A stretch of 64,000 nt of DNA, from assembly GCA_017499595.2 (NCBI GenBank), contig CM039005.1:2108001-2172000 (forward strand), given 5' to 3'. Every line of letters begins with the position of its first letter. The first letter of the stretch is position 1. Below, in pieces: positions 15,295 to 43,202 of the stretch. This stretch comes from Psilocybe cubensis (taxonomy: Eukaryota). A program made the position numbers and the translations under genes. The notes under the pieces were generated by a model. The model ran no database searches. It was not told where the DNA came from and worked only from the letters and a program-made list of their open reading frames with translations.

Positions 15295-18200
15295 ATGGGT
15301 AATCGCGCGTCGTCGTCTCGAGGTGCTACTACTAGTGAGCAAGACAAAGCACGAGATCAAGGATTGGCGGGTCACACTCAGGGTCGTCGTGAGCGCCGGG
15401 ACAATGCTGTGGATATGGAATCAATGGAATACTCGAGACAACAGCAGCAGAGGCAGCAGCAGCGAGAGAGACAGAGAGAGCTTCCGTCGGAGATGATGAT
15501 CGCGCCAGGCGCCCATACTGGTCATCGCGAGCGCCAGGCCGACGCTGGTGCAATGGTGTCAATGGACTCGACGCAACAACAGCACCAGCGGCGGAGGCAG
15601 CGGCAGCTACAGCCGGAGATGAGGATCCCGGGACCTCCTCAAGGCGATCAGTAAGACGTTCTTTGCTATCCAGCCCCCGCTTAACACTTTGACGTTGTGC
15701 ATGATCAGCGCGATTGCTACAGCTGCCATGTTTGGATCGGCGGAGAATACGCAAGTTCATGGTGGAACGTTTACTGCTCATCATGGGCCTCAAGCATCTT
15801 TTGTTGTCAATATACACAGTATGCCGTTTTCTTTTTCTTTTTTCTTTTTTGGCCTTGCTGATTTGAGTAGATGGACCTCAGACTCCGTTAGGAAGTGAGG
15901 CTCAGAGGCATCAGACAGGTGGGCGTCCCCGACGCGCGCGTTCGCCGCGAGATCATCCCCTACCTCCCATTGTGAGTGCATCTCAATTATGCAATTCCGG
16001 GTCTAATATCTTCTTTAGCCTCCTCAGGAGGAAGAACCAATAGGCGTTCGTCACCATCAATCAGTTGAGCCGCGTATTCGGTGTGTTCAAAGGAGCAACC
16101 AAGTCTACGAACAACACCTGCTTCAGAAGGGACGAGGGCATCCTCTTTGGATACCGCAGCCCAATATACATCTTCCAACGCCTTACCGAGTAAAAGGTGT
16201 GTGCATCGGTGATGTTGGGATCATCACTTCGGATGGCGCTTTCGACTTTTTGTTCAACATATGTCTGTCTGCGACGGATCCAATCCACTCAGGCCAGCTT
16301 CCAGCGGGGTTTGTTCCGGTAGACCCGCCGTTAGGCGTAAAGGATACTCGGGCGTACAAGGAATTTACAAATGGAAGCTACCTGGCTAGCTCCACGATAC
16401 AAAAGGTCCTCACACAACGCAGGCAAGTAAATATTGATGATTCTTCTATGTCAATTTCAAGTACAAATATTGACGTCCCTTTCAGCGGATTCTCATTCGA
16501 ATCTTCGGCCTCGGAAGGCTCTGTATTAACGATGCCGGAAGGCGCGTATAAAGAAGAGCTCAACAACATATCAAAATTCCGCAACCACATTGCAATCCAC
16601 GCAGAGAGCTGGTATAGATTCGCGAACGGGCCTTGCGGTCGCGAAATCCAGAATGGCGACTTGCGGCTGGTGATTGGATGTGATAAAACGACGTATTGGG
16701 GAATCGCGACCTTTTACGACGTTGTCCAGCAGAAGAACCTGCGATTGCACTACGTTGCTCGACAGGGGGCCGATGGGCGTCGGATTCCGGACAAGACTTA
16801 CAGTTGGGAACATAATGGAGGGGCGGAAGTCCGAGTTGGACCTGATCGTGAAGAGAACGACGACATACTGAGCGAACCTGGCCAAGGTCCTCTCCTAAAC
16901 CAATGCCTTTTCTTGCGAACCCTCACAGTCACCCTTTCTGAGGATCTTTGGCATGGTGTACAACGTAGCCTCGGAGTTGATGTCAAGGTGGATGAATCTG
17001 AGCCATCATCGGGGAGTACTTCGCAAACTCAAAAACCATCCCCTGCGGTATCCACCCAAGATACATCTTATCTGAGAAGAGAAATACAAGGATCGCGAAA
17101 TCACAGCAATCAGTCGACTTCTTTGGCCATTCAGAACGCGGATAATGTTATTATACAACCTTCAACACCGTCTTCTGTGAGCTATTGACATGGTCCACTC
17201 TAAAAGAATGACCTAATCGAGAACCTCTTACCAGCCCACGGTTCATTTGGCAAAAGTAGTCAACGAGTTTCTGTTGAAAGAGGTGAAGATGTGTTCCTGT
17301 CAGCTCGATTTTTCCTACTGATATCAACATGAATCATAGAAACCTGAAGCCAAGGTTGCCATAGTCAATGACAAGGATTGGTATTCCATTCTATCCTCGA
17401 ATGTAAATTTGCAGTCACTCCGCGAGTCCCAATCCGGCCTCCTATTATCCGAAATTCGCAAAACAAATGACATCTATGTGTCTGATGGTCAGCCAATGAT
17501 TATATGACTTCATCTGCTTTTTTTAAGACTCGTTTTTAGGTGTTGTATATCTCGAGCCGAAAGGACAAAATTTGGAGAGTCTCAGTCCTGAGACGGTATC
17601 TTTGGTCAATGAATTGATAGACGGGTCAATTCCACTCTTAGATTACCTATTCGGCAGATCTGGGAGGCTTCAAATGCGTCACAAAATCGTCAAAGAGCTT
17701 GGATTGAAGATTTTAGAGAACTTTGTTATTGATGGAGATGGAGATATGGGTACACTTCGGAAACAGCTTGAAGGCATGCTATATGAATCTCACAATAATT
17801 TTGCTGATGCCCTGCAAAACCTCCTTGAAGAGATATCTACTATGGAACCCGAAGTTGAACTACGATGGCAGACGAATGATGCATCCCATCGGGCCTTCCT
17901 AGAGGTGCATCCGCGAAGTTATCTATGTCTTGACGACATTATACGGTCCATCAAGGTCTCCAGAGCCACCAGTCTCCCGATTCAACTTGCCCCTCTTGAA
18001 ACAATACAGGACCTTCGAGACAGGTTTCACACGTATTCCACATCATTTGTAGTGGAAAGTCAGATTTCCCTGCTGCTAAAACTGGCAAATTCTCTACTAA
18101 ATAGGTATCTGAATCTCCATCAAAGCGATGATCTTGACCAGGCCATTTTCTACTATGAGGAGGCTTACACATCGTGGTCCCCAATCCAGTCATACCAACA

Positions 18201-20385
18201 AGTAGAGGCATTGCTCGGTCTTTGCTCCTCTCATTACTGGCGACTGCTATTAACGCACAAAGTCGATGATCTTATTGCGCTAATCAAGCTCATTGAAGCT
18301 CAAAGCAACATTGATCGCGTACAGTTGACTGTACCTAAAAGAAACATCTCCAATAACAACGATACACAATGTATGTCTGCATTTTTAGCTTTGGATATAT
18401 GGTCTGTGGATTTCTAACCCATATCATGTTTAGTGGCAGCCGATGTGATAATGATTCCCGCACGCAGGCCCGAAACATACTACAGCGACAATGAATCTTT
18501 TGAATACTTAATTTTTGACGACACGCCTGAACTTGAATCATCTTGGAGTTATTCCATAAACTCTTCCACCATTTCACCCGGTTAGCTTCCGCATCCACAG
18601 TCATTTGATGCATAAGTTATTGTTGTGCTAATTCATCGATGAATATCCTTTAGATATACGAAATCTAATGTCCAAAGAACTCGAGGAGGCGAACCGTATA
18701 TTCCAATTGGGTGTTACAAGGAATATTATTGAAGATTACCTGGTTGACTGCTTTCGCAAGATCAAGGAGGCACACCCGAAAAGAAAGACTCTTAGCATCG
18801 GAGAATGGCCCCAAGGCCAGCAGATACAGACGTTGGTCAATTCAGCGTTAGGAAGATTCGTCTATCCCATGACAGTCATGCGCTATGTATCTTCCTCCCG
18901 ACACTCTCCAGCCGACCGTCTTAACACTGTACTCAATGACAAGGAATCTTCCGAGAAGATCAAATCGTTGTGTATGTTGATTCTTCATGAGGCACCTGAC
19001 AATCACGAAATACATCGGATATTGAACTTCATCGCCATCGGCAAGAATTTTATCTGGAGCCCTAGAAATATGGAGGAATACCTTTTCCTGAATCCAGGGG
19101 ACGTACGACGCCTAATGCTTGATTTAGATCCATTGTTGGAGATTGTAGACGATGAGACTGCTATCAAATTCAGGCACCCTTCGTTTCCCGATATGCTCAC
19201 GGGCAGTTCAATGTCATACAGAGGCGCCGAGTCTGTACATGAAGAGTTCGTATATCTCTGCATTCGACACATCAAAAGGTTTCACCAACCAGGTACTTTC
19301 ACCGACGACTGACTCATCTAGTATGCATGTCTAATATGATACATAGGGTGTCCATCTATTGGATATACGGCTGCTGTAGAATACTCCATCAACAACATAA
19401 GCGAGCATATACTTAATTCAGCTTCTTATGATCAGGAATTTCGGTCGACCATATCTGAAGTCCCATATGTCGAATCTCTGATAAATGGGATGTCGACTAT
19501 CCACAGTGGAACATCTTCTACAAAGCTATTATGCGCTTTCTGGAAAGCATTGAACAGGGTAAGGTTGAATCTGACACTTCGTATATCGCTCAAGCTGCAC
19601 ACCTAATTGATTTCTGGCGTAACAGAAGTTCCATGACGATGCGTACAGGCGTCAGCGAGATATATGGGATCAAAGTCTTCTTAGTCGTCTGGAAAAGCTA
19701 TCACCAGATTTTGCAGTAACCTTTTGCATATCGCTGGTGGCGACTAAATGGAGAGTCGTGAACCCTTTGAACATCATAAGACATCTGTCTGCCATTACTT
19801 ATCCAAAGACCTACCAAGATGCCTACTCTCTTGGACAATTTCTATACTACTTGCGCGAAAATGACTCGCAGCATAATTCGTGGACTCCAGACGACGAATA
19901 CCGACAGCTTTTATTGAACTTCTTTTTCGATTCATCGAGGTCAAAGTCATGGTATCTTGACCAGTCAAAAATATCTACAGTCGCTGAGGTGCTGATGAAT
20001 TTTATGGTTCGACCTTGGGACGATACAAAACGCTCGATCAGGTAGGTAACGTAATTTTTGACCTGTACGCAGCTTACCTACAGCTTCTGGTAGTAATCCT
20101 CAGTCATGGCAAAGTATTTTGCTAGCGTTTTCCCATTTGTTGAAACATATCGGTTACAAAAAAGAACTTGTGGACACCCTTTCAGGACCGAATCTTCTGT
20201 TCCGCGTGCACATCGTCAAAAAGCAAACGGACGAAGTATCTGACCTCGTGAAAACGGTGATAGATGCTGTCGAAGAATATATGATCAGGAATGGTACGGG
20301 TTCGGCAGGTGCATTATTCATTCATATTCGAGACGATGCTGAGAAGACCCTGGCCGTTTTCGGAGGAAATAAGGGTGAGATATAG
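15295..20385 (+). CDS. Large mosaic protein: Q/R-rich repeats, amyloid-like motif, putative gasdermin-like domain, TPR-like helices and NACHT C-terminal remnant
   Basis: The exons splice in frame from MGNRAS (15295) to TAG (20385). Motifs: MFGSAENTQVHGGTF; GHPLWIPQPN...GVCIGDVGIITSDGAFDFLFNIC; LRLVIGCDKTTYWGIA; AKVAIVNDKDW; LANSLLNRYLNLHQSDDLDQAIFYYEEA; WPQGQQIQTLVNSALGRFVYPMTVMRYVSS; IKFRHPSFPDML. Confidence 0.75.
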
Positions 20386-20485
20386 CTGTCCATTTGCAAG
20401 AGGGACAGATACGAAGATGGCTGGAAACGTACTATATGTTATTGGTGTCCATGAATCAAACAAACATATTTATGTAGGACGATAC

Positions 20486-22107
<1,622 letters not shown>

Positions 22108-41231: not shown

Positions 41232-42294
41232 GTGCTCTACTTACAACTGACCTTATATTATACTGATAAATCAATTGAAAAGCTCACTATGCCGAAATGC
41301 GAAGTATACAATGCTCTCAAAAAATCAGACAGGCAGCCTCCCCCTAGCAATCGCAGCAATGATCGCGAGCTTCGTGCCATTGCAATGTACCGCTACAGGA
41401 ACCTTTGGAAAGCCGCTGATATAGAGGAATTTAAACGGGCTTTTATATACGGTGTGAATTGTAACTTTTTTGCAATTTGTCGTAAAGTTCTGGGCCGATG
41501 CTAACCGATATATCATAGGTCATTTCCGTGCGTTTCAAACTGGACGTGTCCTCCACTGCAATATCGTTGAAAACAACCTCATCATATATCAACATGTTAG
41601 GGCAGACAGAAATGAAGAAGAAAATGTCACCGAGTATGAGGACAATGCAAGCAGGAGGAAAGCCTCACTCCTAATGACTGAGTCCAAATCTGTTGAAGTC
41701 AACGAACCTCGAGTCCGCAGAGTCCTCACCGACTTCGATGTGGCAGTCCTTCTAGGCCCCGATGGCAAACCCACTGTATCATCTATCTGCGACCATCATA
41801 TTACAGGCACTATACCCTTCATGGCCCGCCATCTTCTGAGGACACCAGAAGAAAGAGAATTGCAACGATCGATGTACCCGATAATGCCGACATACCATCT
41901 GTACCGCTACGATCTTGAGTCCTTTTTATACATCCTTATCTGGGCTGCGACGTGTTACGATTTGACCACCCACAAAAGATTACAGATGCCCAAAGATTCG
42001 CACCTTGAGGAGTGGTCGAATATCAAAAGCATGAAGAAGACGAGGCAGGCCAAGCAGTTGGGGCATGGGCTGCTAGCAGATTTGGAACAGGACATCCGCC
42101 CTGAGTGGAATGGCCTATGGAAAGAATGGATCCAGCCCCTCTGTTTTTTGTTTCACGACGGGCTATTATGCAGCGACGTTGCTGAGAAACAGGGAAACAT
42201 AGATGATTTCATAACCGGAGGGGGACTTTTGACTTTTGACAATTTCATGAAAAAAATTCAAGTCTCATCCAGCGACTTCAATTCCGAGAAATGA
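41232..42294 (+). pseudogene. FunK1 (Pkinase_fungal) kinase-like copy A, truncated and catalytically degenerate
   Basis: VLHCNIVENNL (HRD replaced by HCN), LTDFDVAV, ITGTIPFMARHLL and HLYRYDLESFLYILIW. No kinase N-lobe visible. Confidence 0.7.
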
Positions 42295-42605
42295 TAGGCC
42301 TGTACATTCTCCATACTTTGTTGAATATTAATTTTTCACCCTTTCTTGTTGATTTATCGCAAATTTATCGTTTTGATTCCAAGTTCGTCCGTCCCCTCCA
42401 TGGGAAGAATGGACACGATCACGGGAATTGATGGGCCGTCGCGTGTTTCTTTAATTACTCCCGTCTTCGCAGTAACTGTCTTTTCAAATCATCACTTCCC
42501 TAGAGCATCCATCGAGCAGCATTGTCTGTCCCAGCAGGCTCATCACAATTGGGACCGTATTTCACTTGGTATATCCATATACGTCCAACAATCCAGTCTG
42601 TTTAA

Positions 42606-43202
42606 GGCTCAGAACCTCGAGCTCGCAGAGTTCTCAATGAATTCGATATGGCAGTCATTCTAGGTCCTGATGGCAAGCCTACAACACCCTCTACCGGCAA
42701 CCACCACATTACAGGCACTTTACCCTTCATGGCTCGTCACCTTCTCCAGACGCCGGAGGAAAGAGACGAAGACCAATCGCTTTACCCCACAATTCCGACG
42801 TACCATTTGTACCGCCATGACCTCGAGTCGTTTTTCTACATCCTTATTTGGGTTGCAACGTGCTATGATCTCACTGCCCACAAGAAGTTGAAGCTGCCCA
42901 AAGGCACATACCTCATAGATTGGTCGAATAACATAAACTTGGGGAGGGCAAGGATTGCGAAAGAATTGGGAGATACGCTAATGAAAAATCTGCGACGTGG
43001 TATCCTTCCTGAGTGGAAAGGTGTATGGAGGGAATGGATCATGCCGCTCTTTGTCTTATTTGAGGAAGGGCTGCGATGCAGCGAAGCTGCTCAGAAACGC
43101 GGTAACATCGATGATTTCATCACGGGAGGTGGGCGCTTGACTTTTGACAACTTCATGCGCAGCATTAGAGGGGAACCCTTAAACTTGGATTCCAAGAAAT
43201 GA
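42606..43202 (+). pseudogene. FunK1 kinase-like copy B, C-terminal fragment only
   Basis: RRVLNEFDMAV, ITGTLPFMARHLL and HLYRHDLESFFYILIW. Clearly paralogous to copy A; catalytic loop absent. Confidence 0.72.

Follow-up and report, generated by a model that had tools for sequence, protein, structure and literature searches.

A receptor-type amyloid-like motif linked to a predicted gasdermin-like domain in a Psilocybe cubensis gene and its homologues

The window analyzed here, a 64,000-nucleotide (nt) stretch of the Psilocybe cubensis genome (GCA_017499595.2, contig CM039005.1, positions 2,108,001 to 2,172,000 of the forward strand), contains a 13-exon plus-strand gene that begins at 15295, ends at a stop codon within its last three exons and keeps an open frame of 1464 amino acids (aa). 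Its second exon encodes a 30-residue amyloid-like motif of a type found at the start of fungal NOD-like receptors (NLRs), and a domain with a predicted gasdermin-like fold follows. We establish below the motif, its exon and transcript, its sharing with NLRs of the same genome, its family-wide linkage to the domain and the prediction of the fold. That NLRs template the motif and so activate a gasdermin-fold effector is a reading that we hold tentatively, as somewhat more apt to be wrong than right.

The gene matches P0001, a database protein labelled Psilocybe cubensis, and shares its start codon. Ten introns, from 15972 onward, are supported by joints in contigs of run X1, which alone gives RNA coverage at the motif site; runs X1 and X5 were taken to be RNA by guess, and the spliced joints back that guess. 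At the exon 1-exon 2 joint, a 12-letter loose end of an X1 contig at 15650 reads the first letters of exon 2. Exactly 110 letters precede exon 3 in one X1 contig, and the 15818-15871 joint, which is absent from the joint table, is drawn from this piece. A purely intronic or untranscribed motif was rejected. Compared with the RNA contigs, the P0001 model retains a GC-AG intron (16423-16485) and omits a 48-nt exon (17235-17282); the same in-frame GC-AG intron is seemingly kept in the gene models of several homologues.

A first-pass annotation of the window had described the peptide as a match to F-x-x-A-x-N-x-x-I/V-x-GG-x-F, and this held. In a six-frame scan the peptide was the sole match in the window, with the core F-x-x-A-x-N-x-x-V-x-G-G-x-F at 15731-15772, and an NLR-trained profile scored it at 32.7 bits, compared with 3.8 bits at the next best place. 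As had also been proposed, it makes up nearly all of its exon (90 of 110 nt), which is bounded by CAG and GTATGC. Low in prolines and charges, the motif forms an island of conservation between unconserved flanks: exon 1 and the linker aligned in 0 of 37 homologues (z > 3) and the motif in 28 of 37, the latter figure being partly circular. Homologue columns beyond the anchoring core are kept as well, with apolar residues at -9 (84%) and -8 (89%), A/S at -5 (81%) and G at +10 (61%). A chance match was rejected, as a 33-place DNA pattern of the core found 36 sites in the genome and its reversed control found 4.

The motif's own Met had been read as an alternative start or as a sign of exon shuffling. 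A working product that begins at Met 15728, and hence with an NLR-like N-terminal motif, now appears very improbable. The codon does have G at -3, Met stands at the motif in 13 of 36 homologues, and the database protein P0004 begins with the motif Met; however, X1 shows splicing of exon 1 to exon 2, eight in-frame ATGs lie further upstream in exon 1, from 15295 on, and Met is found in 0 of 5 close paralogues. The column switches among M, F, and L, so Met may serve there as an apolar residue. Exon shuffling fared better in part. A phase-1 intron 3' of the motif is common to the window gene, four unbroken paralogues in which it was predicted (in one of them not as the top candidate), and NLR genes, where it was the top prediction in 20 of 22 (three being near-identical copies). 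This shared boundary fits a common ancestral motif exon joined to differing downstream genes, the NLR introns being predictions. On the 5' side, a phase-2 intron was clear in three paralogues and tentative, by eye, in one. Exon 2 is of phase 2/1 and therefore not a free cassette, in-frame skipping being impossible, and a recent one-off shuffle was rejected because the arrangement is an old trait of the family and not an event at this gene.

Matching motifs were found on NLRs of the same genome, a check that the first-pass annotation had suggested. The 36 pattern sites comprised 14 just upstream of NACHT domains, 3 at the starts of NB-ARC-TPR genes, 4 before a gasdermin-like domain, 7 in other or unclassified genes and 8 without profile support, which were treated as chance. 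A looser search of fetched loci detected the motif at a distance of 225-351 nt 5' of 20 of 37 recognized NACHT P-loops; 21 of 57 NACHT loci were left out because the regular expression recognized no P-loop in them. At least 23 NLR genes of the genome (20 NACHT and 3 NB-ARC) thus carry the motif at their start. In two of the NB-ARC-TPR genes, L098 and L099 (G000 C5:357135 and C5:398562), an intron splits the motif, and the second half resembles that of the window motif, most closely in L098.

All six close paralogues of the window gene have a recognizable motif copy, three of them scoring below 10 bits. No motif was found within 1.5 kb of the distant paralogue loci L010-L032 (except L015, a close paralogue), where the best score was 6.6 bits, so the link between motif and domain belongs to one subfamily. 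The distant loci form tandem arrays of motif-free gasdermin-like domains (G000 C3:3.66-3.83 Mb, C4:0.96-1.03 Mb, and C5:1.67-1.70 Mb). In another paralogue, L110 (G000 C4:1343950), the reading frame is interrupted within a T run immediately past the motif core, which may reflect a slip in the assembly or loss of the link between motif and domain.

Among carriers that are not NLRs, L091 (G000 C1:316800-321100) holds four motif-like copies, in two pairs, on small open reading frames (ORFs), and it and L090 are candidate adaptors or amplifiers. L095 and L097 are related genes in which the motif precedes a stretch of coiled-coil type and a tail rich in Trp, with no Pfam match. At L092 (G000 C1:325000), a strong motif of 33.4 bits lies approximately 2.2 kb upstream of ORFs that lack Pfam support and that we take to resemble an MLKL-type helical bundle of basidiomycetes. 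When the motif region was used to search a database, three candidates and no match came back, and the survey of the motif's partners covers this genome.

Across homologues, the pairing of motif and gasdermin-like domain is a family trait. From at least 2455 homologues, 176 were fetched, of which 96 have 60 or more residues ahead of the domain. A profile built solely from 18 NLR-side motifs of this genome, with a threshold of 10 bits, matched 36 of these 96 N-termini (the query and a duplicate gene model among them), compared with 2 of 144 C-termini and 1 of 1920 shuffles; one of the two C-terminal matches sits directly before a fused NACHT domain. The bare core I/V-x-G-G-x-F gave 39 of 96, 2 of 144, and 8 of 4800, respectively. 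In 33 of the 36, a single N-terminal copy lies 38-105 residues ahead of the domain. Motif-bearing homologues are spread over several branches of a quick domain tree, which serves solely to show that spread, and come from Psilocybe, Agrocybe, Flammula, Pholiota, Cyclocybe, Hebeloma, Crepidotus, Mycena, and Collybiopsis luxurians FD-317 M1. The last is the strain of the published motif alignment; the accession of its homologue was absent from the supplements of PMC9815663 that were searched, which did not cover all files. Individual gene models are more elaborate: P0013 combines motif, homeodomain, gasdermin-like domain, motif, and NACHT, P0002 has motif core and domain twice, and P0143 (L109) joins the domain to a NACHT-type region.

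The domain itself defines a large family: 2455 representatives pass E ≤ 0.001, and this genome contains 41 matching pieces. It had been noted as a putative pore-forming domain downstream of the motif, a description that the fold searches support in the form of a gasdermin-like fold. A model built from an 84-row alignment, and including 21 intron-encoded residues (16423-16485, spliced out in RNA), reached a predicted local distance difference test score (pLDDT) of 92 and a predicted template modeling (TM) score of 0.88; the single-sequence fold had a pLDDT of only 31. Gasdermins filled the first six rows of a Foldseek search (best E value, 5e-4), ranks 1-7 of an independent wide fold search and ranks 1-15 of a second structural comparison (Z scores of 5.3-9.5, covering model residues ~8-298), in which MACPF proteins first appeared at Z 5.2 with rows that begin near residue 40. 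The bacterial gasdermin 9a84 aligned at Z 9.1 (root mean square deviation of 4.4 over 173 residues) and the RCD-1 pore at Z 6.3. Since Z scores of 7-8 are common without kinship, as the comparison tool warns, the case rests on consistent ranking and near-full coverage; on this basis, a gasdermin-like fold is supported for the modeled domain, as a distant match. No gasdermin or other pore-family Pfam match (Gasdermin, Bact_GSDM) was found in any of the 84 aligned members, nor did a PF04598 search of the genome give a match. Named neighbors of the domain in the Atlas, at 0.81 and 0.78, are leads only. Hairpin positions were assigned from what we take to be the gasdermin topology. In the putative second hairpin, apolar and polar residues alternate, and the first helix ends in a basic K-x-R-G patch. 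A protease gene was not seen by eye among the window's long ORFs or in the 8-kb loci of five paralogues, with no profile search run; approximately 80% of het-Q1-like fungal gasdermin genes adjoin one, according to PMC8851545.

Downstream, the gene takes up part of a receptor (Table 1). Exon 10 matches the region of NACHT NLRs 3' of the ATPase, and 25 of 25 other genome matches lie ~85-210 nt behind NPHP3_N/NACHT; no NACHT or P-loop NTPase domain was matched within the motif-bearing gene. C-termini of homologues vary and include kinase, homeodomain, C2H2, fungal transcription-factor, and NACHT pieces, some of which may belong to fused models, and a NACHT-type Pfam match was present in only 2 of 29 long homologues scanned. 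At the other end, two similar Q/R-rich stretches in exon 1 (15415-15650) look by eye like an internal duplication. An X1 contig extends beyond the stop (20386-20700) into the end of a convergent minus-strand gene, presumably flavin oxidoreductase-like, and the 3' ends of the two genes may overlap. Elsewhere in the window, two tandem ORFs at 41458-43202 resemble, we presume, the C-terminal portion of FunK1-type kinases in fungi.

Table 1. Features of the motif-bearing gene, in window positions
Feature	Position	Strand	Basis
Exon 1: start codon and 118-aa Q/R-rich, unconserved N-terminal extension	15295..15650	+	Start as in P0001
Exon 2: motif-bearing, 110 nt, phase 2/1	15709..15818	+	Splice sites, X1 loose end and 110-letter piece
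Amyloid-like motif, NLR05/08/22/44 type, single copy, aa 126-155 of 1464	15728..15817	+	Pattern, profile, alignment
Exon 3: unconserved linker, proline- and charge-rich	15871..15971	+	Contigs, alignment
Gasdermin-like domain (predicted), ~aa 206-480, with GC-AG intron 16423-16485 inside	16067..16960	+	Model pLDDT 92, fold searches
Exons 6-7: post-domain block, candidate inhibitory element	17235..17487	+	X1 joints; common to closest homologues P0035 and P0037
Exon 8: no family match; faint TPR-like stretch	17540..18370	+	Pfam TPR_2 E=0.056, short of the threshold
Post-ATPase part of a NACHT-type NLR, no P-loop domain before it	18654..19292	+	Genome matches behind NPHP3_N/NACHT
Exons 11-13: C-terminal region and stop	19347..20385	+	X1 contigs, open frame

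Published work offers a setting for these observations. Among the amyloid-like motif groups of fungal NLRs, the NLR05/08/22/29/44 family is the largest, with 689 sequences (PMC9815663, Wojciechowski et al. 2022). Table 1 of that paper gives 0 effectors for the family; the authors aimed their effector search at C-termini, where a few BaMLKL/HeLo proteins had similar-looking motifs, and they speculated that one unlinked effector may stand under many NLRs in basidiomycetes. We propose that the 30-residue motif may act as a homotypic amyloid-type coupling module, held by disordered linkers ahead of the gasdermin-fold domain. Once activated, NLRs encoded in this genome would cluster their own N-terminal motifs into a cross-beta seed, which would template the motif copy on the gasdermin-fold protein, and this forced clustering could switch on the domain at the membrane, most likely for regulated cell death. 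Many NLRs would thereby feed few effectors, at least 23 to 6 in this genome. Amyloid formation, the NLR-to-gasdermin direction, relief of autoinhibition, and pore formation are steps that we infer. Both the many-to-few ratio and the unlinked genes fit the speculation in PMC9815663, and no protease neighbor was seen. Further points in favor are the sharing of the motif with NLRs, its linkage to the domain across homologues and genera, its conservation between unconserved flanks, the ranking of gasdermins in the structural comparison and the 0 effectors given for the motif family. A complex prediction with three motif copies and one NLR motif, run without an alignment, scored 0.02 and counts neither for nor against the proposal. 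An amyloid-gated gasdermin of the Agaricales, in which NLRs pass a prion-like fold to the N-terminal motif and triggering is protease-free, is a possibility that we place slightly on the doubtful side.

Several points weigh against this proposal. The fold match is distant (TM 0.27-0.34, identity 6-13%), and Pfam and PDB sequence searches with the domain gave no match. The putative first hairpin is short and polar: the median distance between its anchors is 22 residues in 24 motif-bearing proteins versus 34 in three distant homologues, and a canonical pore is therefore doubtful. Nor is the motif obligatory, as 60 of 96 homologues score below 10 bits, although divergent or truncated copies account for some of these. 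It is also present on at least seven further genes that are neither recognized NLRs nor members of the gasdermin-like family, so other effectors may exist. In Table 1 of PMC9815663, the motif family is entered with no experimental test. Finally, the effector-side motifs described in PMC12261475 and in the preprint 10.1101/2024.11.07.622273 are C-terminal, a single N-terminal copy being the receptor arrangement.

A reversed direction of signaling must be taken seriously, although we consider it unlikely, because single N-terminal copies are typical of receptors and because the first hairpin is short. The protein would then be a sender of NLR-like build in which a gasdermin fold replaces the ATPase, and its membrane ring would cluster motifs and nucleate amyloid for another effector. 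Consistent with this are the position of the copy in 33 of 36 homologues, the phase-1 intron shared with NLR genes 3' of the motif, and the highly variable C-termini, although some of the C-terminal domains may come from fused gene models. Such a scheme leaves its downstream effector unnamed, however, and the alternation in the second hairpin and the basic patch of the first helix are kept, as in a membrane-inserting protein. Alternatively, the motif may be a non-amyloid module, a short beta-strand element for docking or autoinhibition whose folded binding partner could be the gasdermin domain of the same protein. The occurrence of the motif in unrelated protein contexts would suit such a role, as would the family's ArchCandy pass rates of 0-55% and the fact that amyloid formation is shown for no family member in PMC9815663. 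Nonetheless, the composition and alternation of the motif resemble HRAM-type motifs, to which those authors aligned it, the tandem copies at L091 recall repeat-type amyloid motifs, and the linker length varies freely, and a non-amyloid role seems to us quite unlikely.

The NACHT remnant without a P-loop, together with the frameshift of paralogue L110 just past the motif, raises the further possibility that the gene is a relic, formed when a gasdermin-like gene fused into an NLR gene and left a functionless first exon and post-ATPase half. This appears highly improbable, given that dozens of homologues from different genera retain the motif between diverged flanks and that so few long homologues (2 of 29) have a NACHT-type Pfam match.

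A literature search, with most subscription journals outside its scope, found no paper on an amyloid motif on a gasdermin or on this Agaricales family. The motif is known and the fold is known; their combination is apparently undescribed, as far as we could find. The motif family had almost no effector, and the mushroom family that carries it has a predicted gasdermin fold invisible to Pfam. If NLRs do act through this protein, a necroptosis-like switch would be joined to a pyroptosis-like executioner, and the missing effector would be supplied for the largest basidiomycete amyloid motif family. Coupling of a gasdermin-fold protein to amyloid signaling, on the receiving or the sending side, would represent a new wiring of immune cell death, and the question of basidiomycete NLR signaling becomes testable with named gene pairs of one genome.

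Known systems share some of these properties. RHIM hubs of animal necroptosis also spread one homotypic motif, of different sequence, over sensors, multi-copy proteins, and possible executioners; we know of no RHIM protein with a gasdermin domain. Fungal and bacterial gasdermins (HET-Q1, RCD-1, and Vitiosangium bGSDM) are alike in predicted fold, whereas the window family differs in its sequence-level mismatch, motif-bearing N-terminal extension, long variable C-terminus, and seemingly short first hairpin, with no neighboring protease seen. Amyloid-controlled helical-bundle effectors and protease-controlled gasdermins have been treated as separate routes (PMC8851545, PMC12881547).

Closer in sequence is the NLR05/08/22/29/44 family itself. 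The first-pass annotation had assigned the motif to a type often seen at the N-termini of NACHT proteins in Agaricales, and, by eye, it is in register with the Gymnopus luxurians alignment, M/F-F-x-x-A/S-x-N/D-F/V-x-I-x-G-G-x-F-x-x-x-G (PMC9815663, S1 Text Figs F and I). Both also have dozens of NLR-side copies per genome. The window motif, unlike the family norm of an NLR's extreme N-terminus, is internal (aa 126-155) and precedes a predicted gasdermin fold in a protein without an ATPase. With NWD2/HET-S, NLR-HeLo/HELL pairs, and bacterial Bell systems, the likeness lies in the proposed principle of a short motif shared by receptor and membrane-targeting death domain; NWD2 templates HET-S through such a motif (preprint 10.1101/2024.11.07.622273). 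HET-S-type pairs likewise have the same motif on NLRs of the same genome. They differ in that their death domain is a helical bundle and not a gasdermin fold, in that the window motif is single and N-terminal and not C-terminal to a HeLo/HELL/MLKL-like domain, and in gene linkage: the nearest NACHT match on the contig is ~370 kb away, and no NLR was seen among the window's long ORFs. Because motif position, domain, and linkage all depart from the HET-S type, the window gene is not a member of it, yet it may, tentatively and by analogy, work like an NLR-amyloid-effector system.
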